IMG/VR virus record: IMGVR_UViG_3300025131_000039
Span: 1-59,958 of that record
Reading direction: 5' to 3' (one strand)
Length of the DNA stretch: 59,958 nucleotides
Source: a virus
Lineage: Duplodnaviria > Caudoviricetes
Shown: in pieces, positions 18,695-32,385 of the stretch
Layout of the letters: each line of letters opens with the position of its first letter
Position numbering within the stretch: the stretch's first letter is position 1
Made by a program: the position numbers and the translations under genes
Notes under the pieces: generated by a model
What the model was told of the DNA's origin: nothing
The model's input: only the letters and a program-made list of their open reading frames with translations
Databases searched by the model: none

Positions 18695-18740
18695 ATAAAA
18701 AACTACTACTTAGCTTTCTTTGAAAGCAGTAGTTTTTTAT
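18695..18740 (+). repeat. Type B bulged hairpin (stem-ACTTA bulge-GCTT..AAGC-stem)
   Basis: ataaaaaactact/agtagttttttat plus gctttc/gaaagc; same architecture as 19089-19138. Confidence 0.7.
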
Positions 18741-18854
18741 AATAGATTTTGGAGTTGACGATGGAGATTGTGGAGTTCATCGAAGATGGATCTCTTCAGT
18801 CTCTTCAGAGACTTTAAGGCTGCTGCCAACTACTTAACTAAGTAGTTGAACTAG

Positions 18855-18905
18855 CTAATAAATACTTGGTAGGGAGTTCTTACGAACTACCAAGTAGTTT
18901 ATTAG
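18855..18905 (+). repeat. Type A intergenic hairpin H1
   Basis: ctaataaa-tacttggta-ggga-gttc TTAC gaac-taccaagta-g-tttattag. Confidence 0.85.
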
Positions 18906-18940
18906 AATTAGGATGAACCTGACGAATTGGAGATTGCCGA

Positions 18941-19096
18941 ATGATGAATAGAAATTGGAGAATTGAGCAGCTTATTCAAGCCAAGAAAGAGTTGGATAGA
19001 CAACTATCAATGGGAGTTGACGGCTTGGAGCATCATGGTCAACTACTGGACTACGAAGCAAAGCTTCTGGATGTAGAAACCGCTTTAACTAAATAA
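18941..19096 (+). CDS. First early gene, 51-aa helical protein
   Basis: Own translation MMNRNWRIEQLIQAKKELDRQ...; ggag RBS. Confidence 0.55.
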   Translation: MMNRNWRIEQLIQAKKELDRQLSMGVDGLEHHGQLLDYEAKLLDVETALTK

Positions 19097-19138
19097 TACT
19101 ACTTAGCTTGGTTAAGTATACCAAGCAGTATTATTTAG
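19089..19138 (+). repeat. Type B bulged hairpin
   Basis: ctaaataatact-actta-gcttggt...accaagc-agtattatttag. Confidence 0.75.
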
Positions 19139-19352
19139 AATTTAGGAAGGAGATTGTCCGATGGTTTAAGGTTATGTCCGAAGAAGTGATCTGTGGCTAC
19201 TCTCTGGAGCCACGGCTATGGGGCAAAGCAGGATGACAGAGAGGCGGTAGGGAGAAGATAAATCGTCAATCCCTACCGTAGGAAAGAGGAGCAGCTATGC
19301 TCTTGAAATAGTTTGGCGTACCTTTTTCAACTCAAATCCGAAAGGAAATATC

Positions 19353-19553
19353 ATGTCTTTTGTAATGCAAGCTTTTGTCGATGGTGAATGGAAAAACATT
19401 AACCGTGGAAAAAACCAACATCAAAGAACTTGGAAGAAGATCAATTCTGAGTTGCCAGTTAGAGTTGTTCACTCTAACGGCTCTTTCAAAGTCACCTCTA
19501 ATGGTGAAAAGTTGGAAGGAACAGGCGAAGCCTTGTCCTTTGTGGCAAGGTAA
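19353..19553 (+). CDS. Early hypothetical protein
   Basis: Strong RBS gaaagga; 66 aa. Confidence 0.65.
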   Translation: MSFVMQAFVDGEWKNINRGKNQHQRTWKKINSELPVRVVHSNGSFKVTSNGEKLEGTGEALSFVAR

Positions 19554-19562
19554 TCTTGCAAA

Positions 19563-19614
19563 CTAATAATACCCTGTAGTAGAGTATCTTACGATACTAC
19601 AGGGTAATTATTAG
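19563..19614 (+). repeat. Type A intergenic hairpin H3
   Basis: ctaataat-accctgt-agtag-agtatc TTAC gatact-acagggt-a-attattag. Confidence 0.85.
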
Positions 19615-19700
19615 AAAGTTGTCTTTGATGAGCCACATTGAATGTGGTTCATTTAAGCTAACTTATCTTGAGTTAGTTTACCAAAGTACTGTGTACTTTT

Positions 19701-19932
19701 GGGAAGTAGTGGTGGATGGTGGTTCACTAGCCGTAAGGCTGAAAAATAGGACAAGCTAGGTCTGGCGAAAGCTCACTTAGTGTAACTACTCAAGGTTAGG
19801 GGCTTGAGGGAACTGATCATCTACTATCAGAGATACTTTGCAAGGTATCTTTGATAGTCAAGTGCATCCTAGTGTGTGCGACTCGGAGGCGTCCTCCCCG
19901 CAGCAGAAGGTTCGATTCCTTCTGGCTTCCCA
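19701..19932 (+). ncRNA. Candidate tRNA-like structured ncRNA (~232 nt)
   Basis: GGGAAGT(19701-07) pairs with GCTTCCC(19925-31); T-arm cagaagg-TTCGATT-ccttctg; D-like hairpin with GG; GNRA hairpins; no canonical anticodon arm. Confidence 0.55.
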
Positions 19933-19973
19933 TAAGTACATGGTACATAACTTGTCTTGAAAGGAGAAGAACT

Positions 19974-20192
19974 ATGTCAAAGAGAAAGGCCGAAAGGCAG
20001 TTGCAAAGGTTCTTGGATTGGTGCAATGCCAACCCACAAAGTACAAGTCAAGAGTGGGTCAAGAACTTTAAGAGAATGGGCTGGACAGCTCAGAGTGATT
20101 TCGGATTCTGGACTAGGGAGAATGAAGAACATCAAGCTTCAAAGAAGTTTGGTTTTGTTTTGAACAATCCCGGCAGGGAATTTACTAACTAA
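19974..20192 (+). CDS. Early hypothetical protein (MSKRKAERQ...)
   Basis: RBS gaaaggag before ATG 19974; the longer annotated start overlaps the RNA. Confidence 0.65.
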   Translation: MSKRKAERQLQRFLDWCNANPQSTSQEWVKNFKRMGWTAQSDFGFWTRENEEHQASKKFGFVLNNPGREFTN

Positions 20193-20209
20193 TCTTGAAA
20201 GGAGCTGTT

Positions 20210-20398
20210 ATGGATATCACAATCCAAATTCAGAACGACACGGCTTATCCAGCTTGTAGTAATGCCAAGCTATTCGCTGAAATAGCAGGGACAAAGACTT
20301 TGACAACAGAAGTCTTGCAAAGAATTATGTGGCTTGGTTTCAAAATTAAACTTGCATCTTCCGATGAACTCTTAGATAATTGGCTCAGAAAGGAGTAA
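20210..20398 (+). CDS. Early hypothetical phage protein
   Basis: YPAC..AKLFA.IAGTKTLT...LG motif seen in phage small proteins; aaggag RBS. Confidence 0.65.
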   Translation: MDITIQIQNDTAYPACSNAKLFAEIAGTKTLTTEVLQRIMWLGFKIKLASSDELLDNWLRKE

Positions 20399-20402
20399 TA
20401 CT

Positions 20403-20516
20403 ATGAACAAAGGCATAGTAGGTGGTGGATTTCTGTTATTCTCAACAGCGTTCACATTCTTAATCTTTGGCCTATGTGTAGGCTATTACTATGGAATGGC
20501 ATTTGCCACAATGTAA
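20403..20516 (+). CDS. 37-aa single-TM peptide
   Basis: Own translation MNKGIVGGGFLLFSTAFTFLIFGLCVGYYYGMAFATM; aaggag RBS. Confidence 0.5.
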   Translation: MNKGIVGGGFLLFSTAFTFLIFGLCVGYYYGMAFATM

Positions 20517-20531
20517 AGGATTAGTACCAAA

Positions 20532-20705
20532 ATGCAAACAGCAAAACAATTCTTGGAATGGTATCTTGATATACAAAGCAAAGAGATAGACTTTGCAGAG
20601 GTGGAGAAGAATTTATTCTCTTTGCCAAAGCAAGAACAAGATACTATACGAAGGTTATTGACTTCTGCAAAAGCTAAGAAGGTTGATGACCTAGCTCAAT
20701 ATTAA
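20532..20705 (+). CDS. 57-aa early hypothetical protein
   Basis: Own translation; aagga RBS. Confidence 0.5.
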   Translation: MQTAKQFLEWYLDIQSKEIDFAEVEKNLFSLPKQEQDTIRRLLTSAKAKKVDDLAQY

Positions 20706-20714
20706 CTTGACAAC

Positions 20715-20766
20715 CTATTAAGTATCCTGTAGTAGATTACTTAAGATACTACAGGATGCTTAATAG
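20715..20766 (+). repeat. Type A-like intergenic hairpin H4
   Basis: 20-bp stem ctattaagtatcctgtagta/tactacaggatgcttaatag with one T-G pair. Confidence 0.8.
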
Positions 20767-20782
20767 AAATAGGAGATTTGAT

Positions 20783-20917
20783 ATGAAGCCATTGTTATAT
20801 CCTAACCTTGATCGTTCCAAACTAACCAAAGCTGAATTGGAAGAACTCTTAGAATTGGAGGAACTTGAAGAGGCAAGATATCAAGATTGGTATGAAGATG
20901 CAGAACAACAGTTGTAA
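20783..20917 (+). CDS. 44-aa acidic early protein
   Basis: Own translation ...ELEELLELEELEEARYQDWYEDAEQQL; aggag RBS. Confidence 0.55.
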   Translation: MKPLLYPNLDRSKLTKAELEELLELEELEEARYQDWYEDAEQQL

Positions 20918-20928
20918 GGAGTAAGACT

Positions 20929-21102
20929 ATGTTTGATAGTGCATTTGCGAAGTTGTCAAGAGAAGACAAAGAAGAACTACAAAGTAGGATAGACTTTACT
21001 ATCAGCAGTAACGCTGATTTATTCTTGATGACAAGTGAGCAAGAGAGTCGGTTCCGCTTCTATGAAACTCAAATATTCTTGAAAGAGAAAGGGTTAATTT
21101 AA
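20929..21102 (+). CDS. 57-aa early protein, paralog A
   Basis: AKLS.E.KEELQ.RIDF.IS...RF.ET..FLKEKGLI shared with next ORF. Confidence 0.75.
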   Translation: MFDSAFAKLSREDKEELQSRIDFTISSNADLFLMTSEQESRFRFYETQIFLKEKGLI

Positions 21103-21263
21103 TGCTTACAAGTATCTATGCAAAGTTATCAGCCGAAAATAAAGAGGAATTGCAAAATAGAATTGACTTTGTTATCAGTATAAATACTGATGGCTGCACC
21201 TCTGATGCTGACATTCGCTTCTTTGAAACCGAAGACTTCTTGAAAGAGAAAGGGTTAATCTAA
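21102..21263 (+). CDS. 53-aa early protein, paralog B
   Basis: Tandem paralog, TAATG coupling on both sides. Confidence 0.75.
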   Translation: MLTSIYAKLSAENKEELQNRIDFVISINTDGCTSDADIRFFETEDFLKEKGLI

Positions 21264-21940
21264 TGCAAGTCAAAGAATACGTGAGGCATTGTGAGGATAT
21301 CGGTATGTTTTCAACCGATAGACCTATTAATGACGTTGGAGATACAGAAGGTTCTTGTCTACATAGAACTCCTTACTGTGATGAAAAGTGTTACAACGTC
21401 AAGCTCTATAAGATGTATCCTAACATGGCTGTCAAAGATGTACGAAGTGAGGAGATATGGCAGAACATAAAGCCTTTGCAAGTCAAAGAAGTCTTGGCGA
21501 GAAAGCGTAAGCAAACCAAGAGAGTAAGGCATTGCACCAGAGGTGAGCCAATCAAAGAAGTCTCTGACATTTGGAAGATCAAAGCAGAGGCAAAAGCTAC
21601 GCCAGAGACTACATGGTGGATACCTACAAGAGCTTGGCGAGATCCAACTCTTAACTTCTTGATAAGAACAGAGTTATTTCCTATCAAGAACTTAGCGATT
21701 AATGCCAGCGTTGACCCATCAAATAGCGTAGAAGAATGGAATATGCTGGAAAGTCAAGGCTGGAATATCATGTTCTTTGGTGATGATAGTCTTGACAAAA
21801 GCCCTGCTTCTGGTAAAAGAATGTTTGATTGTCCAAAGACAAAGTGGGGTTTGAAAGGTCACTGTGGTATATGCAAAGCTGGTTGCTTTAGTCAGACTAC
21901 CATAGGTAGACAACAGATTGTCAAATTGTACGAACATTAG
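21263..21940 (+). CDS. Gp88-like Cys-rich (putative Fe-S / radical-SAM-like) protein
   Basis: SC-x6-C-x3-CY, R....GE, WIPTR, CP...CxxC..C pattern. Confidence 0.55.
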   Translation: MQVKEYVRHCEDIGMFSTDRPINDVGDTEGSCLHRTPYCDEKCYNVKLYKMYPNMAVKDVRSEEIWQNIKPLQVKEVLARKRKQTKRVRHCTRGEPIKEVSDIWKIKAEAKATPETTWWIPTRAWRDPTLNFLIRTELFPIKNLAINASVDPSNSVEEWNMLESQGWNIMFFGDDSLDKSPASGKRMFDCPKTKWGLKGHCGICKAGCFSQTTIGRQQIVKLYEH

Positions 21941-21951
21941 GAGAGTATACT

Positions 21952-22221
21952 ATGAAGAAGTACATTCATGTTAACCAACATAACATCAAGAGTAACCGCA
22001 AGTATGGAGAGAATAAGCCTGTCTTTACAGTCAAGACTTACAAGTCTAATGACTATGGGCATGAGGTACATATTGACGGCCCATGTACCATAGTGTATAG
22101 TCCTCTAAAGCCTTTGTCTTGCGGTGCTCATGTCTGGATACAGACAGAGGCAGAGGTACATATCAAAGAGGAAAGAGAGCTGGATATTGGCACCATCGTT
22201 GACGTAACATCTAAAAGATAA
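21952..22221 (+). CDS. Conserved marine phage hypothetical protein
   Basis: IHVNQH.I..N, PV.TVK, GP...VYSP.KPL.CGA.VWI.T. Confidence 0.7.
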   Translation: MKKYIHVNQHNIKSNRKYGENKPVFTVKTYKSNDYGHEVHIDGPCTIVYSPLKPLSCGAHVWIQTEAEVHIKEERELDIGTIVDVTSKR

Positions 22222-22232
22222 GGAGTAACTAA

Positions 22233-22388
22233 ATGACAGAAGAAGAGTATCAAGAATATGTTTGCCAGTTGGCAAGAGAGCATGGCTCAATGCACTCTAC
22301 CTTGCAATGGCTGGAGAAGTATACCAATCTTGACAAGATATCTTTAGACATAGTGAAAGGAACTTTGGAGAATGTCACATCCAGTTAA
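22233..22388 (+). CDS. Small hypothetical protein
   Basis: Own translation; taaggag RBS. Confidence 0.45.
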   Translation: MTEEEYQEYVCQLAREHGSMHSTLQWLEKYTNLDKISLDIVKGTLENVTSS

Positions 22389-22530
22389 TGATATCATCTA
22401 CGATAACATGGAAGATCGTTATCAAGAACTTTATGCTATGTATATAGAGAAAGGTTATGCTCCTTACATAGCAGAAGATAGGGCGTTGATTGATGTCCGT
22501 GAGGAGTTTGAAATCTGTCAACCTAATTAA
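22372..22530 (+). CDS. Small hypothetical protein
   Basis: Own translation MSHPVNDII...; ggag RBS; stop lies inside hairpin H5. Confidence 0.45.
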   Translation: MSHPVNDIIYDNMEDRYQELYAMYIEKGYAPYIAEDRALIDVREEFEICQPN

Positions 22531-22574
22531 CCATATGTAGTGAAGTTCTTACGAACTACATATGGATTAATTAG
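22523..22574 (+). repeat. Type A intergenic hairpin H5
   Basis: ctaattaa-ccatatgtag-tgaa-gttc TTAC gaac-tacatatgg-a-ttaattag. Confidence 0.9.
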
Positions 22575-22603
22575 TACTAACAAAACTGAAAGGAAATATT
22601 GAG

Positions 22604-22774
22604 ATGAATTTTGTATTCCGTTTGCGTAAACGTGACCGCTTTTTTGGTACACGTAAGACCAAGGATGGCCGTAGGTTTGACCTTGGTAAGATGTATCTCC
22701 ACGTTGCAAAGGCTCCACATTTCTGGAATATTAAGGGAATAGTGGATGTACGTGGCCGTACTTTTGTGATATAA
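22604..22774 (+). CDS. 56-aa basic protein
   Basis: Own translation MNFVFRLRKRDRFFGTRK...; gaaagga RBS; followed by GC hairpin ~22781-22801. Confidence 0.6.
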   Translation: MNFVFRLRKRDRFFGTRKTKDGRRFDLGKMYLHVAKAPHFWNIKGIVDVRGRTFVI

Positions 22775-22818
22775 TATTAAGTGGGGGTGAAATTCCCCCA
22801 CATAACACGGAGAATGTT

Positions 22819-23598
22819 ATGAACAAGAGACTAAGAAGTAAACTGGGAAATCCTAGCTCACATAAATATTGTATATCACCTAGAAATTCTCTCTACAGAG
22901 AATTAAGAATGGTAAAGGAGAACAGAGTATTAAGTCAAAATAATCTATCTAAGTTAAGACAATCTATACTTGATGAAAACCTATTGGAGCTACGCCCCAT
23001 TCTTGTATATGAAAAGGGTGGTATATTATACATAGCAGATGGACAACATAGATATAAGATAGCCGTGGAAGAACATCTTGACTACTACATAGAGGTACAT
23101 GAAGGAGAAATAACACCAGAAACAATTGCAAAATTAAATACAAATCAAAGGAACTGGACTGTAATGGACTTTGCTCACTCATGGGCTACGTCAACAGGTA
23201 CGAAGAAAGTTTATTCAAAGTATCTTGAGTACTATGAGGACCACAATATAACACATTCGATGCTTATAAGTTTATTTAATGGTGGAACTCAGAGAGGAAT
23301 AGGGATGAAAGAATTTAAGGAAGGTAAATTAAAATGGAATCCCTTGATAAAAGAGTATGTAGAAGATGTACTCTATAAGATGAAACAACTTGAGTTTGCT
23401 GCGTTTAATCCAGCGATGAACAAGGTTACACTTAGAAGGCAGACGTTTCAAATAGGTATGCTTACCGCACTCAAGACACCTAAGTTTAGATTCAATAGAT
23501 TTATCAAGAACTTATATGATGTTAAACATAGATTTAATAAGTATCATAGAGTGGTTGACATTAAGCAAGAAATCTTTAGAATAGAGAGTGCTAAATAA
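22819..23598 (+). CDS. ParB/Srx-like N-terminal domain protein
   Basis: PILV......IADGQHR motif; LN..QRNW. Confidence 0.7.
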   Translation: MNKRLRSKLGNPSSHKYCISPRNSLYRELRMVKENRVLSQNNLSKLRQSILDENLLELRPILVYEKGGILYIADGQHRYKIAVEEHLDYYIEVHEGEITPETIAKLNTNQRNWTVMDFAHSWATSTGTKKVYSKYLEYYEDHNITHSMLISLFNGGTQRGIGMKEFKEGKLKWNPLIKEYVEDVLYKMKQLEFAAFNPAMNKVTLRRQTFQIGMLTALKTPKFRFNRFIKNLYDVKHRFNKYHRVVDIKQEIFRIESAK

Positions 23599-23611
23599 CT
23601 AGGAGAGGACC

Positions 23612-23794
23612 ATGAAAAAGAATGGCAAAGCTAAAGTTATACGCAATCAAGACTGTAAAAACCTTGCTGAACTTGAACAAAATTATGCTGGATTATGGAG
23701 AGCATTGGGATGGAAGGTAACAAAGAAAAAGAACTCCTTTATCTTGAGAAGCCAGTGCCATACCTATATGATAGGAGCTGGTGATGCAATATAA
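23612..23794 (+). CDS. Hypothetical protein
   Basis: aggag RBS, 60 aa. Confidence 0.5.
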   Translation: MKKNGKAKVIRNQDCKNLAELEQNYAGLWRALGWKVTKKKNSFILRSQCHTYMIGAGDAI

Positions 23795-23948
23795 AACCCA
23801 TGCAGATATAGACCCACTGACAGAGAGTTATCTTTGCACAGTGGCTAATGTAGGAAGTATCTATGAGCTTGACATAGATGTTATTAACGAGTATCTTTTT
23901 GAGATGCACAGATATCATACAGTAAACAACCAGAAGGAAGTAGCATAA
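23784..23948 (+). CDS. Hypothetical protein (54 aa)
   Basis: Own translation; aggag RBS; TAATG coupling to next gene. Confidence 0.45.
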   Translation: MQYKTHADIDPLTESYLCTVANVGSIYELDIDVINEYLFEMHRYHTVNNQKEVA

Positions 23949-24853
23949 TGTTTGACTATCAAATGTTTGACCATGACAAGATTGATTTTGAAGTAGAAAA
24001 GTTTAACCTTGCATCCTATACAGATGGGTTCGTTGCTATACCCTCACATATAGGTGTAGGTCTTAGACGTAAAGATACTAGAGACACTCTTGCCATAGTC
24101 TCTGAAGCATATGAGCCAGTGCAATATAAAGACATAGTAACTGGCGTTCAAGAAGCTATAGGTCTATCCGATATGGACTTAACCGATGCCACATATGAGA
24201 CTAATGTCTATGATAATGGAGCAAGGCTTGAGCTACGTGCCAAGTTCCCTGCCCATGAGATACAGATAGACAAAGGAGACACAGTTATACCTGAGTTTGT
24301 CTTTCGTACTTCCCATAATAGGACATGGGCTAACAATGGTATGATGGGATTATGGAGAGGCTTCTGCTACAACACATTAGTATCAGGAGATAAGCTGGCC
24401 TATGTCTATGGTAGACACACCAAGAACTTCAACGTGCTAGGCTTTGCCTCAAAGATAGAGAAGGCTTCTGAATACATAGCTGGTGGTGGACTGCAACAGA
24501 TGAGGAACTGGTATCACACAGATGTTAGCCGTGATAATGTAATCAATCTGTTCACCCATACCTTGGCAAAGAAGACTAATAATATTAGCCGCAAGGTAGA
24601 ACCTAACAAGGTGATGCTCTCTAATCTAATGAAGATCTTTGATGAAGAGAACCGTCACCTACATGGAAGAGGTAGCTATGAGAAGTATGGCACACAGAAC
24701 AAAGGTACTATGTGGTCTGCTTATCAGGCTGCTACCTACTGGAGTAGCCATGATAAGAATGGTGGTAGACCATCCCACACTACCATAGGTGGTAGAGAAG
24801 ACAAGGTAAGGAAGATGTTACACTCACCACAATGGATGCAACTAGCAGCATAA
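23948..24853 (+). CDS. DUF932-like protein
   Basis: L.IVS..YEPVQ, SH, R..C.N.L, RHTKN, T.WSAYQA.T.W..H motifs. Confidence 0.7.
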   Translation: MFDYQMFDHDKIDFEVEKFNLASYTDGFVAIPSHIGVGLRRKDTRDTLAIVSEAYEPVQYKDIVTGVQEAIGLSDMDLTDATYETNVYDNGARLELRAKFPAHEIQIDKGDTVIPEFVFRTSHNRTWANNGMMGLWRGFCYNTLVSGDKLAYVYGRHTKNFNVLGFASKIEKASEYIAGGGLQQMRNWYHTDVSRDNVINLFTHTLAKKTNNISRKVEPNKVMLSNLMKIFDEENRHLHGRGSYEKYGTQNKGTMWSAYQAATYWSSHDKNGGRPSHTTIGGREDKVRKMLHSPQWMQLAA

Positions 24854-24864
24854 GGAATAGGACT

Positions 24865-25014
24865 ATGAAAGATCAGAGAGTTGTAGGTAAACGTAAGCAC
24901 AATCCATTAGCGAAGCAACTCTCTGATCCTATGTGGAGAAAGAGAGTTGTCACCAGTAAGGTTGTGTATAATAGAAAGAAAGTAAAGGATATAGACTATG
25001 TGGATCATAGTTAA
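24865..25014 (+). CDS. 49-aa basic peptide resembling ArfA
   Basis: NPLAKQLSDPMWRKRVVTSKVVYNRKK resembles ArfA core N..EALLHDPLFRQRV..KKGKGSY.RK. Confidence 0.4.
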   Translation: MKDQRVVGKRKHNPLAKQLSDPMWRKRVVTSKVVYNRKKVKDIDYVDHS

Positions 25015-25183
25015 TAGTGATTTCGATGAGGACTGTACCAACATACTCATGGGTGAGGATGGTGCGGCTTTGAAATTCAAAGATAAGACAAGTGCATATA
25101 GATACTTACAAAGTATGTGTAAGGAACATGGACTAGACTACGATTTAATGGAAGGTGATGTGGAATTATGGCGGCTTCACTAG
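24998..25183 (+). CDS. Hypothetical protein
   Basis: Overlap-coupled small ORF. Confidence 0.5.
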   Translation: MWIIVNSDFDEDCTNILMGEDGAALKFKDKTSAYRYLQSMCKEHGLDYDLMEGDVELWRLH

Positions 25184-25452
25184 GTGGTGTCAAGCCACAC
25201 CACTCTGTACTTAAACGTGACAAAGACCATCCTCTATATATCAAAGGGGTACTGGATTGGATGGAGCATAATAATGCTTTGGTAAAAGAACATTCCAGAT
25301 TAGCTAGGCGTGGTGATAAGGATAGCATGTCTCAAAGATATATACATGAAGGATATGTCAGAGATATTAGACACTATCTGCGAACAGGAGATTGGATATC
25401 TGATTTCTTTGGTAAGAATCAAGAACATAAAATTAAATGGAGAAGTATATGA
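25168..25452 (+). CDS. Hypothetical phage protein
   Basis: YV..I..YLRTGDWI..FFG..QEHK motif. Confidence 0.6.
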   Translation: MAASLGGVKPHHSVLKRDKDHPLYIKGVLDWMEHNNALVKEHSRLARRGDKDSMSQRYIHEGYVRDIRHYLRTGDWISDFFGKNQEHKIKWRSI

Positions 25453-25718
25453 CTGACTTTGTATGGCCTGAAGATAACTTTAACTCTGTACGTAAGGATC
25501 TTGGAGCACATGTTTCCAAGAGAACTGAGTATGTCCAACGTAACTTTGATAAGAAGTGGGTACGTTGGGAGCTAGTGGATACCCAAACTAAAGAGAGGTA
25601 TCCGTTTCAAACAGGCTGCAATAAGAGAGAAGTCTGGATTGCCACTGGTGTGTGGCATGATAAACCTGTCACTACTATGAATAAGGAGAGACAAAGGTGG
25701 AAAGGAAGGCAGAAGTAA
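25449..25718 (+). CDS. Hypothetical protein
   Basis: ggag RBS, ATGA overlap. Confidence 0.5.
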   Translation: MTDFVWPEDNFNSVRKDLGAHVSKRTEYVQRNFDKKWVRWELVDTQTKERYPFQTGCNKREVWIATGVWHDKPVTTMNKERQRWKGRQK

Positions 25719-25882
25719 GGGAGATACGTTACATCCATCAAGGTTCTACCAATGGTATTGGTTGGCAGGTTATTGTCTATGATCCTCGTGGTGATGTTCG
25801 TATCTTGAAAGAAAGTATTTACAAAGAGGCAGCAATAGACTATGCTGCTGAGTATAACAAGGAGCTGTCCAATGAACATTGA
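25697..25882 (+). CDS. Hypothetical protein
   Basis: aaggag RBS before GTG. Confidence 0.5.
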   Translation: MERKAEVREIRYIHQGSTNGIGWQVIVYDPRGDVRILKESIYKEAAIDYAAEYNKELSNEH

Positions 25883-26117
25883 GAAAGAACTACGAAGGAA
25901 TGTTAAAGAGTTGCAAGAACAATTGCAAAGGGCATATGAAAGAATAAAACTTTTGCAAGATGAGATTCACAGTGAACGTCAGAGGAATTTCTACAACGAT
26001 CACTTCTCCAATAAGGATAAATCTGGATGGGCCATGATAGAGCACCCACCTGAGTATCTTGAAGAGGGTCATGCTGAGTTGCCCTATCCTATTGAAAAGA
26101 CAGAGAATGATGTATGA
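25872..26117 (+). CDS. Coiled-coil hypothetical protein
   Basis: aaggag RBS; heptad pattern. Confidence 0.55.
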   Translation: MNIEKELRRNVKELQEQLQRAYERIKLLQDEIHSERQRNFYNDHFSNKDKSGWAMIEHPPEYLEEGHAELPYPIEKTENDV

Positions 26118-26433
26118 AGATGCCAAGATATTAAGTAGGCATGACTTCCTTGAAAAATATGGTAACCACAATGAGTGGATCTATGATAAGGTACATGGTG
26201 AATGGATAAGAGAAATTCTAAAAGAAAGTCTTAAGTCTATAGATAATAGAAAAGAAAAGGAGAGGCAGATGAGTAAAGTAAATGACTTACTAATTCAGAT
26301 GGAAGAGGAAGCTCCACATATTACTAAGACTGCTTTCGTTGGAAAGTATGGGTGGATACATGAAGATGTATGGACAAAGGTTCGTATTGAAATGAGAGAT
26401 CAACTTGGATTGGAGTTAGAAGATGAAGACTAA
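26107..26433 (+). CDS. Hypothetical protein with internal duplication
   Basis: F..KYG..EWIYDKV and F..KYG..EDVWTKV halves. Confidence 0.5.
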   Translation: MMYEDAKILSRHDFLEKYGNHNEWIYDKVHGEWIREILKESLKSIDNRKEKERQMSKVNDLLIQMEEEAPHITKTAFVGKYGWIHEDVWTKVRIEMRDQLGLELEDED

Positions 26434-26701
26434 AGAACATATCTGTCAAGTCTATGACTTTACTTCCATTAGAGAAGTAATCATGGAGAAGAAGCAAGAG
26501 AAAGAGAAAGCAAGGTATCAAGATAAGTTAGCTGAGATGCAGATAGATCAGGATAACATCACACTTGATCTGTTTACCATCAGAGACATGATACTTAATG
26601 GCTTTGATCCCTCTTGCCCTGAAGACATAGTAGAATATGGAAGGAAGGTGGGCTATGAGATTGATTGGGATACAGGAACATGGAATCCAACCGATGACTA
26701 A
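26423..26701 (+). CDS. Hypothetical protein
   Basis: ggag RBS; overlapped ORF. Confidence 0.5.
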   Translation: MKTKEHICQVYDFTSIREVIMEKKQEKEKARYQDKLAEMQIDQDNITLDLFTIRDMILNGFDPSCPEDIVEYGRKVGYEIDWDTGTWNPTDD

Positions 26702-26873
26702 GACTTTTATACAAGAAGAACGAGACAAATACTTCTGGATTAGGGTTAAAGAATATAAGAGGGAAGGATACTCGTATAGAGAAGCAAAAGGATTAGCTAG
26801 TCAAGATACAAATGAAGCTATGGCTTCAGATGAAATCTGGATGGAGCAGTTTGAGAAGGAGACATGGGAATGA
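26694..26873 (+). CDS. Hypothetical protein
   Basis: YKREGYS.REAK.LA motif; coupled ORF. Confidence 0.5.
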   Translation: MTKTFIQEERDKYFWIRVKEYKREGYSYREAKGLASQDTNEAMASDEIWMEQFEKETWE

Positions 26874-27145
26874 AATACAGTGGAGTAGCTTGTATAGAGT
26901 GGCTTGACTCTTCAGAGTATGAGGATGCCGATTGGAAGTCAGAAGATGAGGTCAAAGAATTAACACCTATGCGTATCAAAAGTGTAGGTATACTAGTCAA
27001 TGAGGATGACTTGTATATTACACTTGCATCCTCTGTTAATAACTATGATCTTGATTGTGAAGCACAGTATGGCGGTTTGATATCTATTCCTAAATGTGCA
27101 GTCTTAAAAAGATTATCTTTACCAAGGGTATTTACAGATGACTGA
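26864..27145 (+). CDS. Conserved phage hypothetical protein
   Basis: IEW.DS...W...SVG.L......ITLAS...IP motif. Confidence 0.6.
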   Translation: MGMKYSGVACIEWLDSSEYEDADWKSEDEVKELTPMRIKSVGILVNEDDLYITLASSVNNYDLDCEAQYGGLISIPKCAVLKRLSLPRVFTDD

Positions 27146-27851
27146 GAATGGATGGGTTAATCTAGAGGACCACTTAGGTACTGACGTTACAGTAGTTAAT
27201 GCAGCAAGAGTATCCTTTGGTAAACAAATAAATATTATGAACGAACCAGATGAAAGGTTAATAGCTTATCTTGCCAAGCATAATCATTGGTCACCTTTCT
27301 CTCATTGTTATGTAGTGTTTCGTATCAGAGCACCTATCTTTGTAGCTCGTCAGTTAGTTAAGCATCAAGTAGGCTTGGCTTGGAATGAAATAAGTAGAAG
27401 ATATATTGACAAGCCACCTGAGTTTTGGTATCCCTCTAAGTGGAGAGAGAAAGCTGAAGATAAGAAGCAAGGATCAACAGACAATGAGGTGCATGGTAAT
27501 CAGTGGATACAGGAGAAGTATAATAAAGCTATTGAACTATGTCAGCAAACGTATGAAGATATGATAAAGGCAGGGGTCTGTCCTGAACAAGCCAGAACTA
27601 TACTACCTCAGTCCCTTTATACTGAATGGTACTGGAGTGGTAGTCTCTATGCCTTTGCCAGAGTATGTAATCTTAGATTAAGTCCAGATGCACAAGAAGA
27701 AACTAGATGGGTAGCAGAATGCATATCATATCATATGCATAAGTTATATCCTGTCTCATGGAGAGAACTTATGAAACATAAAATAGAAGAGGAGATGAGT
27801 GAACGTATGAAAGAAATATATAGTGGCACTTGGCCGGGTCCGGGTGTGTAA
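27138..27851 (+). CDS. thyX: Flavin-dependent thymidylate synthase
   Basis: VVNAARVSF, HWSPF, ARQLVKHQ...NEISRRY, PEQAR..LPQ, AQ.E. Confidence 0.95.
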   Translation: MTENGWVNLEDHLGTDVTVVNAARVSFGKQINIMNEPDERLIAYLAKHNHWSPFSHCYVVFRIRAPIFVARQLVKHQVGLAWNEISRRYIDKPPEFWYPSKWREKAEDKKQGSTDNEVHGNQWIQEKYNKAIELCQQTYEDMIKAGVCPEQARTILPQSLYTEWYWSGSLYAFARVCNLRLSPDAQEETRWVAECISYHMHKLYPVSWRELMKHKIEEEMSERMKEIYSGTWPGPGV

Positions 27852-27859
27852 CATGGAAA

Positions 27860-27909
27860 CTAATTAACCATATGTAGTAGTTCTTACGAACTACATATGG
27901 ATTAATTAG
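27860..27909 (+). repeat. Type A intergenic hairpin H6
   Basis: 50 bp identical to 32289-32338; ends 12 bp before primase-helicase ATG. Confidence 0.9.
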
Positions 27910-27921
27910 AAAGGGGAAAAT

Positions 27922-29544
27922 ATGCTGAAGAAACAGTGGCTCGACAGAGGGCCATGTCCTAAATGTAAGTCATCCGATGCTAATGTTAAGCATGAGCAGG
28001 GATATTCGTATTGCTTTAGTTGTAATACAAAGTTTGGTGATAATGTTGCTATTGTACCTAAACAAGAATGGACGGTGAAACCTATGTCAACAACTGGAAG
28101 TTGGGGTAATATTAGTGATCGTAAGATTACTATGGATACCGCAAAGAAATATAGTACAAAGATAAAGCAATCTGGTAACATCGTGACCCATCATCTGTAT
28201 GGTTACTTCAACGATAGTGGTGAGCAGATAGGTCACAAAGTTAGACAGTGCAAAGACAAAAGAATGTGGGTGGAAGGTGAGCTAACTGATGCCCTGTTGT
28301 TTGGTCAGAATATATTCTCACCGAAGGGTAAGTATATAACTATATGTGAAGGTGAAGTGGATGCCATGTCAGCCTATGAACTGATGGGATCTAAGTGGCC
28401 TTCTGTATCTATCAAGACAGGAGCTGGTTCAGCATTGCGTGATTGCAAGAATGCATTCACTTATCTGGATAGCTTTGATAACGTAATCATATGCTTTGAC
28501 ATGGACAAGCAAGGTCAAGAAGCTGCACAAGAAGTAGCTCAGTTGTTTGCACCTAACAAGGCAAGGATAGTACGTATGGATCACAAGGATGCTAATGAGT
28601 ATCTCAAGATGGGACAACGTGCTGCCTTCAATGATTGCTGGTGGAATGCAAAGCCATTCACACCTGCTGGTATAATTAATCTCAAAGACTTAGGCGAAAC
28701 ATTATACGATGAGGATTTCTGTGAGACTTGTCTCTATCCTTGGCCTCGTATGAATGAGAAGACCTATGGTATGCGAACAGGAGAACTGATTACATTCTGT
28801 AGTGGTAGTGGTATGGGTAAGTCAAGTATCATACGTGAACTTATGCATCACTTCCTACGTAATACAAAAGATAACATAGGTATACTTGCTCTTGAGGAGA
28901 GTGTGAAGAACACGGCATGGAACATCATGTCAGTGGAAGCAGATGCTAGGTTGTACATCAAGGAGATTAGAGATCAGTTTACACCAGAGCAATTGCAGAA
29001 GTTCCAAGCGGAGACTATTAACTCTGGTAGGTTCTTTGCCTTTGATCACTTTGGATCAGTGGACAATGACGAGATACTAGCAAGGGTTAGGTTTATGGCT
29101 CAAGCTCTTGATTGTAAATGGATTTGTCTGGATCACTTAAGCATACTTGTATCAGGTCAAGAGGATACAGATGAACGTAAGTCCATCGACATACTAATGA
29201 CCAAGCTACGATCTCTCGTGGAGCAGACAGGTATATGCTTGTTACTTGTATCCCATCTACGTAGGCCATCTGGTGACAGAGGACATGAGGATGGTAGGGA
29301 AGTAACACTCTCTCACTTGAGAGGTTCCGCATCCATAGGACATCTGAGTGATGGTGTCATTGGATTGGAGCGCAACCAGCAAGACGATGATCCAATCATA
29401 GCCAACACAACTACCATACGTATACTCAAGAACAGATATACAGGAGATACAGGTGTGGCTACACATTTATTTTATAACAAAGACACAGGTAGGATGACTG
29501 AAATAGACAACCCATTTGATGTAGGAGATACTAATGCCGATTAA
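27922..29544 (+). CDS. T7 gp4-like primase-helicase
   Basis: Zn finger CPKC...CFSC, TOPRIM EGEVDA/FDMD, Walker A GSGMGKS, LDHL, LRGS, KNRYTG. Confidence 0.95.
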   Translation: MLKKQWLDRGPCPKCKSSDANVKHEQGYSYCFSCNTKFGDNVAIVPKQEWTVKPMSTTGSWGNISDRKITMDTAKKYSTKIKQSGNIVTHHLYGYFNDSGEQIGHKVRQCKDKRMWVEGELTDALLFGQNIFSPKGKYITICEGEVDAMSAYELMGSKWPSVSIKTGAGSALRDCKNAFTYLDSFDNVIICFDMDKQGQEAAQEVAQLFAPNKARIVRMDHKDANEYLKMGQRAAFNDCWWNAKPFTPAGIINLKDLGETLYDEDFCETCLYPWPRMNEKTYGMRTGELITFCSGSGMGKSSIIRELMHHFLRNTKDNIGILALEESVKNTAWNIMSVEADARLYIKEIRDQFTPEQLQKFQAETINSGRFFAFDHFGSVDNDEILARVRFMAQALDCKWICLDHLSILVSGQEDTDERKSIDILMTKLRSLVEQTGICLLLVSHLRRPSGDRGHEDGREVTLSHLRGSASIGHLSDGVIGLERNQQDDDPIIANTTTIRILKNRYTGDTGVATHLFYNKDTGRMTEIDNPFDVGDTNAD

Positions 29545-30058
29545 ATTTGATAGAAATTTATATAATAAATATGATTCCTTAACTAAGAATGTTATGAGTC
29601 ATTGGTTATTATCTAAAGGTTATAAGGATATTAATACTGAAGAAACATATGGAGTAGATGTCGTATGTAAAGATAAGTTAGGTTTGGAGTGTTACTTTGA
29701 GACAGAGATAAAGACAAGCTGGCGTGACCATTGGCCTGAGTCTTGGAAGGAGATACGTATTCCATACAGGAAGCATAAGCTCATAGACAAGTGGGTAAGC
29801 TCAGTGAAATCGGAGGGGTGTATTGGTCCCTTAACCTTTGTCATATTCAACAAGCACTTGGATCAGGCATGGTTTATGGATGGCTCTATGGTTAGTGAGA
29901 GTGATGTTAAACCAGTGGACAATAGAAGGAGAGCAGCAGAGCCTTTCTATCATATCAAAGTAGCTGATGCTAAGTTAGTGAAGGTAATGCCAAGTCCAGT
30001 ATTAAAGGAGAAAGGTTATGACAAAGATTTACTCATTAATAGTAAGTACCCTAGCTAG
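29534..30058 (+). CDS. PD-(D/E)xK-like nuclease-fold protein
   Basis: E.YGVDV...FETEIK pattern. Confidence 0.5.
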   Translation: MPIKFDRNLYNKYDSLTKNVMSHWLLSKGYKDINTEETYGVDVVCKDKLGLECYFETEIKTSWRDHWPESWKEIRIPYRKHKLIDKWVSSVKSEGCIGPLTFVIFNKHLDQAWFMDGSMVSESDVKPVDNRRRAAEPFYHIKVADAKLVKVMPSPVLKEKGYDKDLLINSKYPS

Positions 30059-30263
30059 ATGGATACCCCTCTTGGTCTTTATACCCATATTATCGTGGAT
30101 GGTTATGATGCTTACCGTCTTAATCGTAAAGCATTATATAGAGGACTTACCGTACAGCAACGGCTTTTCAATGTGGCTATGTTCTTTAATTACAGCTTAC
30201 GTTTTCTGTCTGTATAACTTTATGAGGAGTAAACGTGTTAGTATCAATAACGAATCAAGCTGA
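30018..30263 (+). CDS. Membrane protein
   Basis: Two hydrophobic segments; aaggag RBS. Confidence 0.5.
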   Translation: MTKIYSLIVSTLARWIPLLVFIPILSWMVMMLTVLIVKHYIEDLPYSNGFSMWLCSLITAYVFCLYNFMRSKRVSINNESS

Positions 30264-30555
30264 CCATCATCTGTCAGGTATAGTTAAATCAGAGAATGCA
30301 ATAGGCATAGAGCTTGGTGTTAAAGGTGGTGGTTGTGCTGGCTTTACATACCAATGGGAAGTTTTGTTTGACATTCCTGATGAACATGATATAATTCCAC
30401 TTAAAGAAGGGAAGTTATATATTAAGAAAGAAGCAACGATGTTATTAATAAATACAACTATAGACTTCTCTACTGGTATTAATGGTAATTATATTATATT
30501 TAAGAATCCTAATGCTACATCACAGTGTGGATGTGGAGAAAGTTTTGGGATATGA
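30235..30555 (+). CDS. iscA: A-type Fe-S cluster carrier (IscA/SufA/HesB family)
   Basis: GVKGGGCAGF.Y and NPNATSQCGCGESF. Confidence 0.9.
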   Translation: MLVSITNQADHHLSGIVKSENAIGIELGVKGGGCAGFTYQWEVLFDIPDEHDIIPLKEGKLYIKKEATMLLINTTIDFSTGINGNYIIFKNPNATSQCGCGESFGI

Positions 30556-30761
30556 AATATAAAATGTGGGAACATTGGTGCCCAGTGGAACACACAACTA
30601 TAAACGTAGGAAACGGAGAGGAGTGTAACTGGTGTGGACAAGACGAGGAATATGAAAGTCGCAACCGTAGATATAGAAACAGATTCACTACAACCAACAT
30701 TAATCCATTGTATAGTAGCAAAGGATCATCAGACATCACAGATACAAGTGTGGGATCATAG
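30552..30761 (+). CDS. Small Cys-containing protein (overlaps polymerase start)
   Basis: HWCP...ECNWCG putative Zn ribbon. Confidence 0.4.
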   Translation: MKYKMWEHWCPVEHTTINVGNGEECNWCGQDEEYESRNRRYRNRFTTTNINPLYSSKGSSDITDTSVGS

Positions 30762-32292
30762 TAATCTTGATACGTTTAAGGATTGGGCTAAAACTATTGA
30801 TCGTTTTGTCATGCATAATGGTATTTCGTTTGATGCACCTAATCTTAACAAGCTACTAGGCACACAGATTAAGTTGGAACAGGTCATAGATACCTTGGTA
30901 TTATCACAACTTATCAATCCCATTAGAGATAAAGGTCATAGTCTTCAGGCATGGGGTGAACGGTTAGGTCATTACAAGATGGAGCATGAGGACTTCTCGC
31001 AGTACTCAAAGAGTATGCTTGAGTATTGTAAGAATGATGTTGAGTTAACCTATGAGGTATACAATCAGTTAGCTAAAGAAGGAGCTACCTTCTCCAAGAA
31101 ATCTATTCGTATGGAACATAAGGTACGTGCCATAGTAGATAAACAGGAGAAGAATGGCTTTGCTTTAGACATACGTAAGACCATAGGATTACTGTCTCGC
31201 CTCACTGATGAAGCTCAAGATCTTGAAGCATGGTCTAAGGTATCCTTTGAACCTACAGCAGTGGAGTTAAAGACCAAGACAAAGTACATACCATTTAATA
31301 TAGGATCACGACAGCAGATCGCTGATCGTTTGATGGAGCTTGGTTGGAAACCAAAGGAGTTCACTGAGAAGTCAGGACAACCTAAGATTAGTGAAGAGAT
31401 TCTTGATAAGATTAAGATGGAAGAAGCACATAAGTTTTCACGATACTTCCTATTGCAAAAGAGAATAGCTCAGATACAATCTTGGATTAATTCCTATGAC
31501 GATACCACTGGTAGGGTACATGGTAGAGTATTAACTCTAAAGACTATCACTGGCCGTATGGCTCACCATAGTCCTAACATGGCTCAGATACCAGCAGTAC
31601 GTAGTCCCTTTGGTAAGGAGTGTAGAGCCTGTTGGACTGTGGATAATCCACATACTCATACTCTGGTAGGTACAGATGCTTCTGGTCTTGAGCTACGATG
31701 CCTTGCCCATCTGATGGACAGTAAAGATTATACTAATGAGATCCTCAATGGTGATGTACATACAGCTAACATGAAGATGGCTGGCCTCACCGACAGGGAT
31801 CAAGCAAAGACATTTATCTATGCATTTATGTATGGAGCAGGTGCCGCCAAGATCGGTAAGATCGTAGGTGGTAACAAAGATCATGGACAGGAACTAATGG
31901 ATAGGTTCTTGTCTAATATGCCAGCCCTAAAACGTGTCCGTAACAGCGTTCAGAAGGCCGCTGAGAGGGGTATGATACGAGGGGTGGATGGCAGACACCT
32001 GCATATAAGATCACCTCATGCTGCTCTTAACACCTTAATACAAGGAGCAGGAGCAAGTATATGTAAGGATTGGCTTATTAATATGATACAAAGAATAAGC
32101 CACAAAGGAATTGATGCACGATTAGTTGCTTCAATACATGACGAGTACCAGTTCGAGGTAGCAAAGAAGGATGTGAACCAGTTCGGTATCATAACCAAGG
32201 ATGCTATCAAGGATACGGAACTCAAGTTAAAGTTCAGATGCCCACTGGATAGTACATGGAAGCATGGAACGACATGGGCTGAGACACACTAA
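30652..32292 (+). CDS. polA: Family A DNA polymerase with 3'-5' exonuclease (T7-like)
   Basis: DIET, HNG..FD, YC.NDV exonuclease motifs; DASGLELR, AKTFIYAFMYG, IHDE polymerase motifs. Confidence 0.95.
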   Translation: MKVATVDIETDSLQPTLIHCIVAKDHQTSQIQVWDHSNLDTFKDWAKTIDRFVMHNGISFDAPNLNKLLGTQIKLEQVIDTLVLSQLINPIRDKGHSLQAWGERLGHYKMEHEDFSQYSKSMLEYCKNDVELTYEVYNQLAKEGATFSKKSIRMEHKVRAIVDKQEKNGFALDIRKTIGLLSRLTDEAQDLEAWSKVSFEPTAVELKTKTKYIPFNIGSRQQIADRLMELGWKPKEFTEKSGQPKISEEILDKIKMEEAHKFSRYFLLQKRIAQIQSWINSYDDTTGRVHGRVLTLKTITGRMAHHSPNMAQIPAVRSPFGKECRACWTVDNPHTHTLVGTDASGLELRCLAHLMDSKDYTNEILNGDVHTANMKMAGLTDRDQAKTFIYAFMYGAGAAKIGKIVGGNKDHGQELMDRFLSNMPALKRVRNSVQKAAERGMIRGVDGRHLHIRSPHAALNTLIQGAGASICKDWLINMIQRISHKGIDARLVASIHDEYQFEVAKKDVNQFGIITKDAIKDTELKLKFRCPLDSTWKHGTTWAETH

Positions 32293-32338
32293 TTAACCAT
32301 ATGTAGTAGTTCTTACGAACTACATATGGATTAATTAG
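32289..32338 (+). repeat. Type A intergenic hairpin H7
   Basis: Identical to H6; its TAA is the polymerase stop codon. Confidence 0.9.
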
Positions 32339-32356: not shown

Positions 32357-32385
32357 TTGACACCCTGATCTAATTATGAGATAAT
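32357..32385 (+). promoter_or_regulatory. sigma70-type promoter upstream of SSB
   Basis: TTGACA-17nt-GATAAT. Confidence 0.75.

Follow-up and report, generated by a model that had tools for sequence, protein, structure and literature searches.

A structure-constrained and strongly covarying family of bulged hairpins, each about 50 bp long, is located at gene ends in one arm of a phage genome (Duplodnaviria; Caudoviricetes), IMG/VR record IMGVR_UViG_3300025131_000039. The window, that is, the whole stretch of DNA that was analysed, comprises the entire record of 59,958 bases, with an estimated completeness of 98% and a G+C content of 38.9%. The hairpin is accessory and portable, having been gained and lost cleanly among related phages and homogenised within genomes. 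As to its role, we tentatively favour a module that may act in RNA at the ends of genes, in mRNA processing or 3′ stabilisation, resembling the early RNase III sites of T7 or the repetitive extragenic palindromic (REP) elements of bacteria, possibly spread in the manner of the PeSL cassettes of T4-like phages and possibly read at its tip by a factor.

Six copies of the hairpin in the window

A covariance model, R1, was built from 23 hairpins and run over the whole window with the filters off. It gave exactly six + strand matches (76.1, 75.2, 74.0, 71.2, 55.9 and 29.4 bits), which coincide with the six same-strand, intergenic hairpins that a sequence-only reading had picked out by eye; the other matches were six reverse-strand shadows (30.2-15.4 bits) and nine at E values of at least 1.5. 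RNA folds of the six copies range from -20.8 to -28.6 kcal/mol.

18855-18905, + strand: copy 1, in the leader of the + strand arm, 5′ of open reading frame (ORF) 18941-19096; R1 71.2 bits, E 1.9e-16; -20.8 kcal/mol
19563-19614, + strand: copy 2, beginning 10 nt past the stop codon of the small gene P0001 (19353-19553); R1 55.9 bits; -26.1 kcal/mol
20715-20766, + strand: copy 3, 3′ of ORF 20532-20705 and followed by a Shine-Dalgarno (SD) sequence and an ATG at 20783; R1 29.4 bits, E 9e-5; -28.6 kcal/mol
22523-22574, + strand: copy 4, with the stop codon of ORF 22372-22530 in its 5′ arm; bulge GTGAA; R1 75.2 bits
27860-27909, + strand: copy 5, between thyX (27138-27851) and the primase-helicase ATG at 27922; R1 76.1 bits
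32289-32338, + strand: copy 6, with the DNA polymerase TAA (32290-32292) in its 5′ arm, 19 nt upstream of the promoter-like site 32357-32385; R1 74.0 bits

Copy 1 has a lower stem ACTTGGTA/TACCAAGT, the bulge GGGA, the apical stem GTTC/GAAC and the loop TTAC, and copy 2 has an apical stem of 5 bp, GTATC/GATAC, with the same loop. As had been noted, five of the six copies share the TTAC loop, the exception being copy 3, in which the apex has decayed (ATTAC TTAA GATAC) and the 25-nt arms are 88% complementary; the purine-rich 5′ bulge of 3-5 nt, the single-nucleotide 3′ bulge and the identity of copies 5 and 6 (50/50 bases) were likewise borne out. The CTAAT...ATTAG frame by which the family had been recognised holds for most copies, but the bare pattern is not significant alone, because 22 of 100 shuffles reach the six matches found in the window (3.98 expected); one of the six (16709) is unrelated, and copy 3 (20715), which begins CTATT, is missed. 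The further proposal of a genome-wide regulatory layer does not stand, since all six copies are confined to 13.5 kb of the + arm (18855-32338) and the whole-window scan gave no R1 copy in 32.4-43.4 kb or in the - arms.

A hairpin outside the family (core GCTTGGT-TAAGTAT-ACCAAGC) lies at 19097-19140 on the + strand, right behind the stop codon of ORF 18941-19096 (R1 13.1 bits, E 3.4), and is followed by TTAGAATTTAGGA, which is similar to the sequence past copy 1.

Anatomy and covariation of the family

Related sequences were collected by a primase-helicase search, which yielded 80 related loci, and by a strict apex pattern, which yielded 32 IMG/VR contigs. R1 copies are present in 14 of the 80 primase loci, each with a primase at least 83% identical, and R1 gives 97 matches, shadows counted in, in 30 pattern loci. 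After removal of reverse-strand shadows and of matches below 28.7 bits, 117 forward hits remained, corresponding to 72 distinct hairpins; R1 is biased to the window-type lower stem, and divergent members, for example the hairpin of locus L078, are undercounted in this figure.

Stem sequences differ among the copies with pairing kept, as the sequence-only reading had stated for the window. In an alignment of 76 hits (65 distinct rows) that was fitted to the model, so that pair counts are biased upward, 91.1% of cells are paired, and changes on both sides occur in 18 of the 21 pairs (271 cells), against 19 cells with a change on one side. The covariation score, 0.543, was reached by 0 of 500 shuffles and lay at 0.036-0.097 when the pairing partner was slid as a control.

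The total helix is 21-23 bp long and is interrupted by a 5′ bulge of 3-5 nt and, on the 3′ side, by a single-base bulge or a U.U (T.T) mismatch. The 5′ bulge starts with G and ends with A (GTGAA 13, GTAGA 10, GTGA 10, GTA 8, and others). Among the 67 hairpins that could be parsed (5 of the 72 are too decayed), the apical stem is GTTC/GAAC in 38, GTAC/GTAC in 18, GTATC/GATAC in 10 and GTTAC/GTAAC in 1, and the loop is TTAC in 64. The AT-rich lower stems (about 30% GC) are unrelated between lineages yet always paired; their base differs by lineage (CTAAT.., CTATATA.., TAAGTAAG..), and the GTAG/CTAC at their top covaries as well, to GCAG/CTGC, CTAG/CTAG and GGGG/CCCC. The minimum-energy apex given by RNAfold differs from the one drawn here, but an apical pair is U-A in 47 rows, A-U in 18 and unpaired in none, and this covariation favours the GTTC/GAAC stem with a TTAC loop, as originally drawn, over the RNAfold alternative.

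In all copies the 5′ bulge (GUA, GUAA, GUGA, GUAGA, GUR) is complementary to the UUAC loop over 3-4 bases, with G.U allowed (for example at 22540-22555), and pairing of loop and bulge between copies, or alternative conformers, could result. The GUA at the top of the lower stem recurs in the bulge, so that register slippage is possible. In L078, whose primase is 70% identical, a hairpin upstream of the primase-helicase gene has the same CTAATTAAT...ATTAATTAA base and a different tip (..TATATAAG TTTTAACG AATATA..); it may represent a sister family that has diverged beyond the reach of R1. Neither anticodon-loop mimicry nor a K-turn was retained as an idea, given that the 4-nt loop is closed by a C-G pair that never varies and that an unpaired G.A is missing from the 3′ strand.

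No Rfam family matched the window at its gathering threshold, and matches in 18400-20100 were at chance level only (E values of at least 0.03). Literature searches yielded no description of the motif, nor was one found in the main text of a study of HTVC023P-type genomes (PMC9599517), the supplementary files of which could hold annotations.

Position and orientation

The positional counts that follow rest on a crude ORF caller and on 72 hairpins that are not phylogenetically independent. The stop codon of a co-oriented ORF of at least 40 aa falls within -15 to +9 nt of the hairpin start in 45/72, an ORF starts at most 40 nt downstream in 49/72, and 3/72 hairpins are spanned by an ORF of 100 aa or more. 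In 58 of 63 cases the closest ORF of at least 100 aa on the downstream side runs in the same direction as the hairpin, and all copies of a record lie on one strand within about 10 kb (two copies in record G001, six in G002, five each in G003 and G004). Several copies overlap a stop codon, as previously remarked (the polymerase TAA at 32290-32292 and the stop of ORF 22372-22530 in the window), and some end just upstream of a ribosome-binding site or promoter: the SD and ATG (27922) of the primase-helicase gene come 3-13 nt after copy 5, and copy 6 precedes the site at 32357-32385. Copy 6 lies upstream of that promoter-like site and is therefore part of the polymerase transcript, at its 3′ end, and not of the leader of the following gene, which encodes a single-stranded DNA-binding protein (SSB).

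The 5′ arm contains stop codons in all three frames in 37 of the 72 hairpins, compared with 7% of composition-matched shuffles, and the 3′ arm in 8. The three-frame stops and the position at stop codons would be understandable for an element that has to be kept clear of ribosomes where a coding region ends in the RNA. The hairpins are not standard terminators, in agreement with the sequence-only reading: a U-rich tail (at least six T in the 10 nt past the stem) is present in 1/72.

Single-base bulges number 46 on the 3′ side and 6 on the 5′ side, and the sense strand folds better than the antisense strand in 62 of the 72 hairpins. Together, the 3′-side bulges, the 5′ purine bulge, the asymmetric loop and the stability of the sense fold argue that one strand folds, namely the transcript strand.

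Distribution, gain and loss among relatives

The covariance model was also run on relatives, as the sequence-only reading had proposed, and close relatives were found to keep the position of the hairpin upstream of the primase-helicase gene and at the 3′ end of the DNA polymerase gene, so that the lack of positional conservation which that reading had named as a refutation was not observed. The polymerase-SSB junction carries a hairpin in 8 of 37 distinct relatives. Loci L010 and L008 share their flanking sequence; immediately past the TAA they are set apart by an indel of 56 nt, which corresponds to presence and absence of the hairpin, and no target-site duplication was seen at this indel. 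The site between thyX and the primase gene that is occupied by copy 5 is empty in 43 of 43 distinct upstream regions listed (loci L019-L084, primase 70-82% identical), and in many of these relatives the stop and start codons overlap as TAATG.

Relative L087, which is 95-98% identical to the window, has eight copies compared with six and differs by replacements the size of a gene cassette. It is without the ParB-like gene (22819-23598) and thyX (27138-27851), corresponding to window positions 22801-23602 and 27081-27829, and is otherwise collinear. ORF 18941-19096 is replaced in L087 by a 650-nt segment with two family hairpins. Three of the six breakpoint regions between L087 and the window lie at most about 45 nt from a hairpin; the other three do not.

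Within genomes, copies have become homogenised. Copies 5 and 6 of the window are identical, the two copies of L015 are one base apart, and duplicated rows occur in L098 and L105/L114, while orthologous copies in relatives 95-98% identical differ. The presence of the hairpin does not follow the similarity of core genes, since the more distant records G001, G003 and G004 (TerL 72-73% and primase 65% identical) carry copies, as does G002, for whose terminase no relationship was detectable. Several hairpin-less records are fragments with an estimated completeness of 46-56%.

In a scan of 185,579 prokaryote genomes, the strict pattern was found in two contigs of metagenome-assembled genomes (MAGs; labelled Pseudomonadota and Rhodospirillaceae), with one good copy each; in one of them the copy follows, 187 nt downstream, a phage-type integrase gene that adjoins cellular genes. 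The cultured distant relatives HTVC027P, HTVC023P, 023Pt_psg01 and DSL-LC04 gave no hairpin (0 candidates in a first look, which is weak evidence).

Genome and transcription context

The principal features of the window around the hairpins are as follows.

about 18.76-43.4 kb, + strand: + strand arm, with small early ORFs and the replication genes
the - strand arms: TerL, the capsid gene and large structural genes
16861-18402, - strand: TerL
27138-27851, + strand: ThyX
27922-29544, + strand: T7-type primase-helicase
30634-32292, + strand: family A DNA polymerase, stop codon TAA at 32290-32292
32357-32385, + strand: sigma-70-type promoter-like site TTGACA-17-GATAAT, matching at 11 of 12 positions, ahead of the gp2.5-like SSB gene
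32423-32896, + strand: gp2.5-like SSB
32912-32938, + strand: canonical intrinsic terminator, a 12-bp stem followed by TTTTTT, 3′ of the SSB gene

The + arm also encodes a Cas4-like exonuclease, a SegE-like GIY-YIG endonuclease, an Endonuclease VII-like protein and ribonucleotide reductase. Phage RNA polymerase, RNase III, transposase, HUH nuclease, REP-associated tyrosine transposase (RAYT) and integrase were not detected among the 50 window proteins scanned, although a 1544-aa protein with no family match could conceivably be a very divergent RNA polymerase.

The promoter-like site at 32357-32385 is kept in hairpin-less relatives, where it directly follows the polymerase stop codon. Other consensus sigma-70-type sites occur at 30368 and 23555, and promoter-like sites as a class are not enriched in the region (44, compared with 43.9 in shuffles). 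The site at 32357-32385 suggests that the host RNA polymerase is used. The hairpin and T6 tract at 32912-32938 indicate that the phage uses U-tract terminators where they are needed, and the sigma-70-type sites combined with this terminator make transcription by the host polymerase with ordinary terminators the likely regime.

Judged by terminase, the pelagiphages HTVC027P and HTVC023P (41-42% identity) are the closest phages in culture. A megablast search against phage records found no near-identical genome, and distant blastn matches were short and confined to the primase and polymerase genes.

Three other structures were observed in this part of the genome. The divergent intergenic region 18403-18760 contains overlapping inverted repeats (18675-18713 and 18695-18740, within 18665-18745) that are rich in ACTACT/AGTAGT, have A- and T-runs as flanks and look like a bidirectional terminator or attenuator placed between the arms. 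A (TA)n run is present at about 18572-18586. In the ORF-free stretch 19615-19973, positions 19690-19940 (+ strand) hold a candidate structured RNA of about 235 nt, with a fold of -103.1 kcal/mol (z = -6.16; 0 of 200 shuffles as good). Its 5′ GGGAAGU pairs with a 3′ GCUUCCC just past a perfect T-arm (GAAGG-UUCGAUU-CCUUC), which gives it an end like that of a tRNA or transfer-messenger RNA (tmRNA); it has no G3.U70 pair and no encoded CCA. The only database signal was a weak, partial match to beta_tmRNA (15.2 bits compared with a gathering threshold of 84, E 0.037), and ARAGORN reported none. L087 carries a different segment in place of window 19680-19946.

Candidate partner proteins

One small early gene is a putative partner of the hairpin.

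19353-19553, + strand: P0001, 66 aa, with the motif PVRVVHxNGSxKV

P0001 is the only window protein that tracks the hairpin in viral records: its family occurs in all five hairpin-bearing records (the window and G001-G004) and in none of six hairpin-less ones (including G006 and G007, in which both TerL and the primase are present), and its genes usually adjoin a hairpin. This co-occurrence may reflect only one shared early-region module. P0001 has no Pfam family and no fold match in the PDB at E values up to 0.001 (the AlphaFold model is fair, pLDDT 83.3), and relatives are absent from both hairpin-bearing MAGs, both of which are incomplete. P0001 aligns to up to 11 repeated stretches within metagenomic proteins of 771-2941 aa, and it looks like a free-standing single copy of a repeat unit.

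The two partners that had been named in the sequence-only reading are disfavoured. The ParB-like gene (22819) is absent from L087, which has eight hairpins, and relatives of the basic 22604 protein occur in 12 of 65 hairpin-less loci. The Endonuclease VII-like gene looked promising among loci with both flanking genes (present in 3/3 hairpin loci and 0/19 others). It was discarded on account of G001 and G003, nearly complete records that carry hairpins and have no PF02945. This Endonuclease VII/HNH-like gene (34857-35297, + strand) is a variable insert, with an allele 41-46% identical between flanking genes 87-99% identical, and is missing in all 19 hairpin-less loci that hold both flanking genes; it appears to behave like a free-standing homing endonuclease gene.

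Possible functions of the hairpin

Among the roles suggested in the sequence-only reading, processing or stabilisation, or binding of a protein, would be the best fit to position and anatomy. In the explanation that we prefer, and hold tentatively, the hairpins would be portable gene-end modules of host-transcribed early and replication operons. Each would fold in the mRNA just past a stop codon, with the three-frame stops of its 5′ arm excluding ribosomes, and the helix of about 22 bp, with its 5′ G..A bulge and its 3′ single-base bulge or U.U mismatch, would serve as an element for processing, for 3′ protection, or for both: an RNase III-type enzyme would bind or nick the hairpin, or the hairpin would stop 3′ exonucleases. 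Each upstream cistron would thereby acquire a stable hairpin as its terminus, with the downstream SD set free. A phage or host factor would recognise the near-invariant apex (A-GU(W)C-UUAC-G(W)AC). Recombination could also take place between the copies, which are dispersed repeats of about 50 bp, leading to homogenisation within genomes and to movement or deletion of small gene cassettes, as for PeSLs in T4-like phages. The structural constraint, the strand, the position, the distribution and the gain and loss of the hairpin are established here; RNA as the active form, cleavage or stabilisation and the factor are inferred.

According to the parts of PMC1540722 available to us, E. coli RNase III substrates typically comprise two helical turns, bulges or internal loops can restrict cutting to one strand or bond so that the product keeps a protective 3′ hairpin, and a bulge-helix-bulge can permit binding without cleavage. 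The helix of about 22 bp, the interruption of its 3′ strand and the intercistronic position appear to match such substrates.

Several observations weigh against a module acting in RNA. To our knowledge, bacterial RNase III has no need of a specific loop. No conserved positive sequence determinants have been found for this enzyme, as far as the same parts of PMC1540722 go, so that the invariant apex is not explained by RNase III alone and a second reader of the tip is implied. On the upstream side, the nearest long ORF runs in the same direction in only 35 of 61 cases; most of the remaining 26 are first-in-arm copies beside divergently transcribed structural genes. To this are added the crude ORF calls, the shared ancestry of the hairpins and the upward bias of the pair counts mentioned above. 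The hairpin is dispensable: records G006 and G007 have zero copies despite TerL 86-87% identical (their loci L023 and L024 have primases 81% identical), and they hold TerL and the primase and should therefore span the early region; nor was a substitute family of long hairpins seen in the early region of L023. A search of sequencing runs listed no RNA run that contains the window sequence, the one run found being of unknown kind with 0.21 of the sampled words. Finally, G.U pairs are scarce in both orientations (20 of the 1504 pairs when the sense strand is folded, 29 of 1534 for the antisense strand), a G.U versus A.C strand test gave no RNA-specific signal, and 19 one-sided against 271 double changes is unusual for an element selected only as RNA. 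Compensation seems to proceed without G.U intermediates, as would be expected had the arms been corrected against each other in DNA or exchanged by recombination, and this suits a hairpin that forms in DNA as well. Because the wobble test does not favour RNA, the RNA-level reading is held only tentatively, and a DNA-level palindrome, though unlikely, has to be taken seriously.

Such a palindrome would be selfish or recombinogenic, folding in single-stranded or supercoiled DNA and spreading by copy-and-paste or gene conversion without a dedicated RNA function; it would be tolerated where it is least harmful, past stop codons and in sense orientation, and its tip and bulges would be recognised by copying or nicking machinery, as in REP/RAYT, the ends of IS200/IS605 and attC. 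The clean L010/L008 indel with otherwise identical flanks, the empty thyX-primase site in 43/43 relatives' regions, the identical copies within genomes while orthologous copies differ, the eight copies and cassette-sized indels of L087, the almost purely Watson-Crick pairing, and a distribution that is patchy with respect to core-gene similarity and extends to G002, with its unrelated terminase, and to two MAGs, one copy beside a phage-type integrase, all speak in its favour. However, no transposase, HUH nuclease, RAYT or integrase was found in the window, no target-site duplication accompanies the L008/L010 junction, and the Endonuclease VII-like gene does not track the hairpins. A copied element should also bring its own lower stem, whereas the lower stems are unrelated yet paired, which calls for selection or self-templated correction; and co-orientation with genes and three-frame stops are more simply explained by a role in the transcript. 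The RNA-level and DNA-level readings need not be mutually exclusive, as PeSLs are both regulatory and recombinogenic in the account given in the accessible parts of PMC2839356.

Four further explanations are less probable. The hairpin may be an operator at which a sequence- and shape-specific binding protein, either of the phage (for example P0001) or of the host, reads the bulged A and UUAC and controls translation of the neighbouring cistrons or antitermination. Known protein-binding hairpins are laid out in the same way, with a bulge 4-5 bp below a small loop, and this layout, an apex that is nearly invariant while all else varies, SDs that start 3-20 nt past several copies and the 5/5 versus 0/6 distribution of the P0001 family point in this direction; but the two MAGs have no P0001 relative (both being incomplete), P0001 has no Pfam or PDB fold match and resembles repeat units of giant proteins and not known RNA binders, its co-occurrence may mirror a single shared module, copy 6 lies upstream of the next gene's promoter and cannot be the 5′ operator of that gene, and six to eight sites per genome are many for a nut-type system, so that we regard an operator as rather improbable. 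About as improbable is a cassette system in which the hairpins would be cis-sites of portable cassettes in lytic marine phages, with a dedicated small protein, for which the P0001 family is the only candidate, reading the bulge and UUAC tip and the single-stranded DNA fold providing the site of crossover by which cassettes pass from one phage backbone to an unrelated one and into integrated elements, a functional analogue of attC or PeSL with its own recognition code. Factor-dependent terminators or attenuators without a U-tract, insulating early cassettes like the stem-loop half of a PeSL, would account for stable structures (-20 to -34 kcal/mol) at gene ends and for the place of copy 6 directly before a promoter, and PeSL stem-loops act as terminators according to the parts of PMC2839356 available; this is improbable to a higher degree, given that 71/72 hairpins have no U-tract while the same phage has a canonical terminator, that no promoter-like site follows copy 5, where termination would cut off the essential primase gene, and that a terminator does not need the conserved loop and bulge. 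The least likely explanation by far is that of N4-type hairpin promoters in single-stranded DNA, or of priming signals for a phage enzyme, which the sequence-only reading had brought up. In its favour are only the general idea of a DNA hairpin as a recognition signal and the position of several copies ahead of genes. The stems of about 22 bp with a 4-nt loop are unlike the N4 hairpins, which are short, and copies begin on stop codons instead of keeping a set distance from start codons; the 50 proteins scanned included no phage RNA polymerase, and consensus sigma-70-type sites are present.

The phages belong to an abundant, uncultured marine group, and the motif is among the better-supported uncatalogued structured elements, having dozens of independent stem sequences, an invariant tip, a position after stop codons and natural knock-in/knock-out pairs. 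Should the hairpin be a processing or stability signal, T7-style punctuation of mRNA would be common across marine phages, and a small part for gene ends that can be moved between constructs would be at hand; should it be a recombination site, the exchange of genes in the hypervariable early regions of these phages would be accounted for. The near-absence of G.U in a transcript-oriented hairpin is a puzzle that bears on the maintenance of palindromes in phage DNA.

Comparison with known systems

The early RNase III sites of T7 (R0.3-R1.3, of which R1.1 is the model substrate) are likewise bulged hairpins of about two helical turns. They lie between cistrons of a host-transcribed early polycistronic mRNA, a setting with which the position and sense orientation of the present hairpins agree. 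Both occur in several copies per genome, one of them in a leader ahead of the first sizeable ORF. The hairpin family has the two-turn helix with a bulge or internal loop that marks RNase III sites in the parts of PMC1540722 available, and its one-strand interruption could similarly limit cutting and leave a protective 3′ hairpin (same parts of PMC1540722). No sequence relation to the T7 sites and no Rfam match was found, and the present family differs in its near-invariant loop, apical stem and bulge, its scarce G.U pairs, its confinement to one 13.5-kb stretch and its being optional among close relatives.

PeSLs of T4-like phages are short, repeated intergenic stem-loop cassettes in a plastic region of small early genes, and have been linked to insertion, deletion and replacement of ORFs between near-identical phages (PMC2839356 and PMC4122927, in the parts available); the cassette-sized differences between L087 and the window may be compared with these. 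A PeSL combines a strong sigma-70 promoter with a terminator stem-loop, often polyG/polyC, whereas the stems described here are AT-rich and structure, not sequence, is conserved apart from the specific apex. No conserved promoter is joined to the hairpins: a consensus site follows one of the six window copies (32289) and is present in hairpin-less relatives as well.

The REP elements and bacterial interspersed mosaic elements of enterobacteria are imperfect palindromes dispersed behind genes or within operons, stabilise mRNA 3′ ends and have a GTAG motif, and the hairpins resemble them in these features. REPs are chromosomal, number in the hundreds and are linked to RAYT, in contrast to two to eight hairpins per phage, one per MAG and no RAYT in the window, and the GTAG of the hairpin lies in the stem and covaries. 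Integron attC sites, of which one imperfect palindrome lies 3′ of each small, co-oriented and often promoterless cassette, have a conserved structure and extrahelical bases that mark the strand, and the hairpins are similar in these respects. The base boxes of attC (R''/R') are conserved and the tip is variable, and the hairpins show the reverse; their stem base varies by lineage, the window has no integron integrase, and neither an attI nor a cassette promoter is apparent. The coat-protein operators of MS2 and PP7 and lambda boxB have a 5′ bulged purine a few base pairs below a small conserved loop that is read by a protein. This architecture is shared by the hairpins, which have no homology to them, belong to a DNA phage, have an additional lower stem of about 18 bp and many copies at gene ends, and for which the reader protein is only a candidate.

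Because it has no attached promoter, U-tract, RAYT, attC boxes or Rfam match, the hairpin family is a member of none of these systems; in how it would act it is most like the T7 early RNase III sites or REP, and in how it evolves it is most like the PeSLs.

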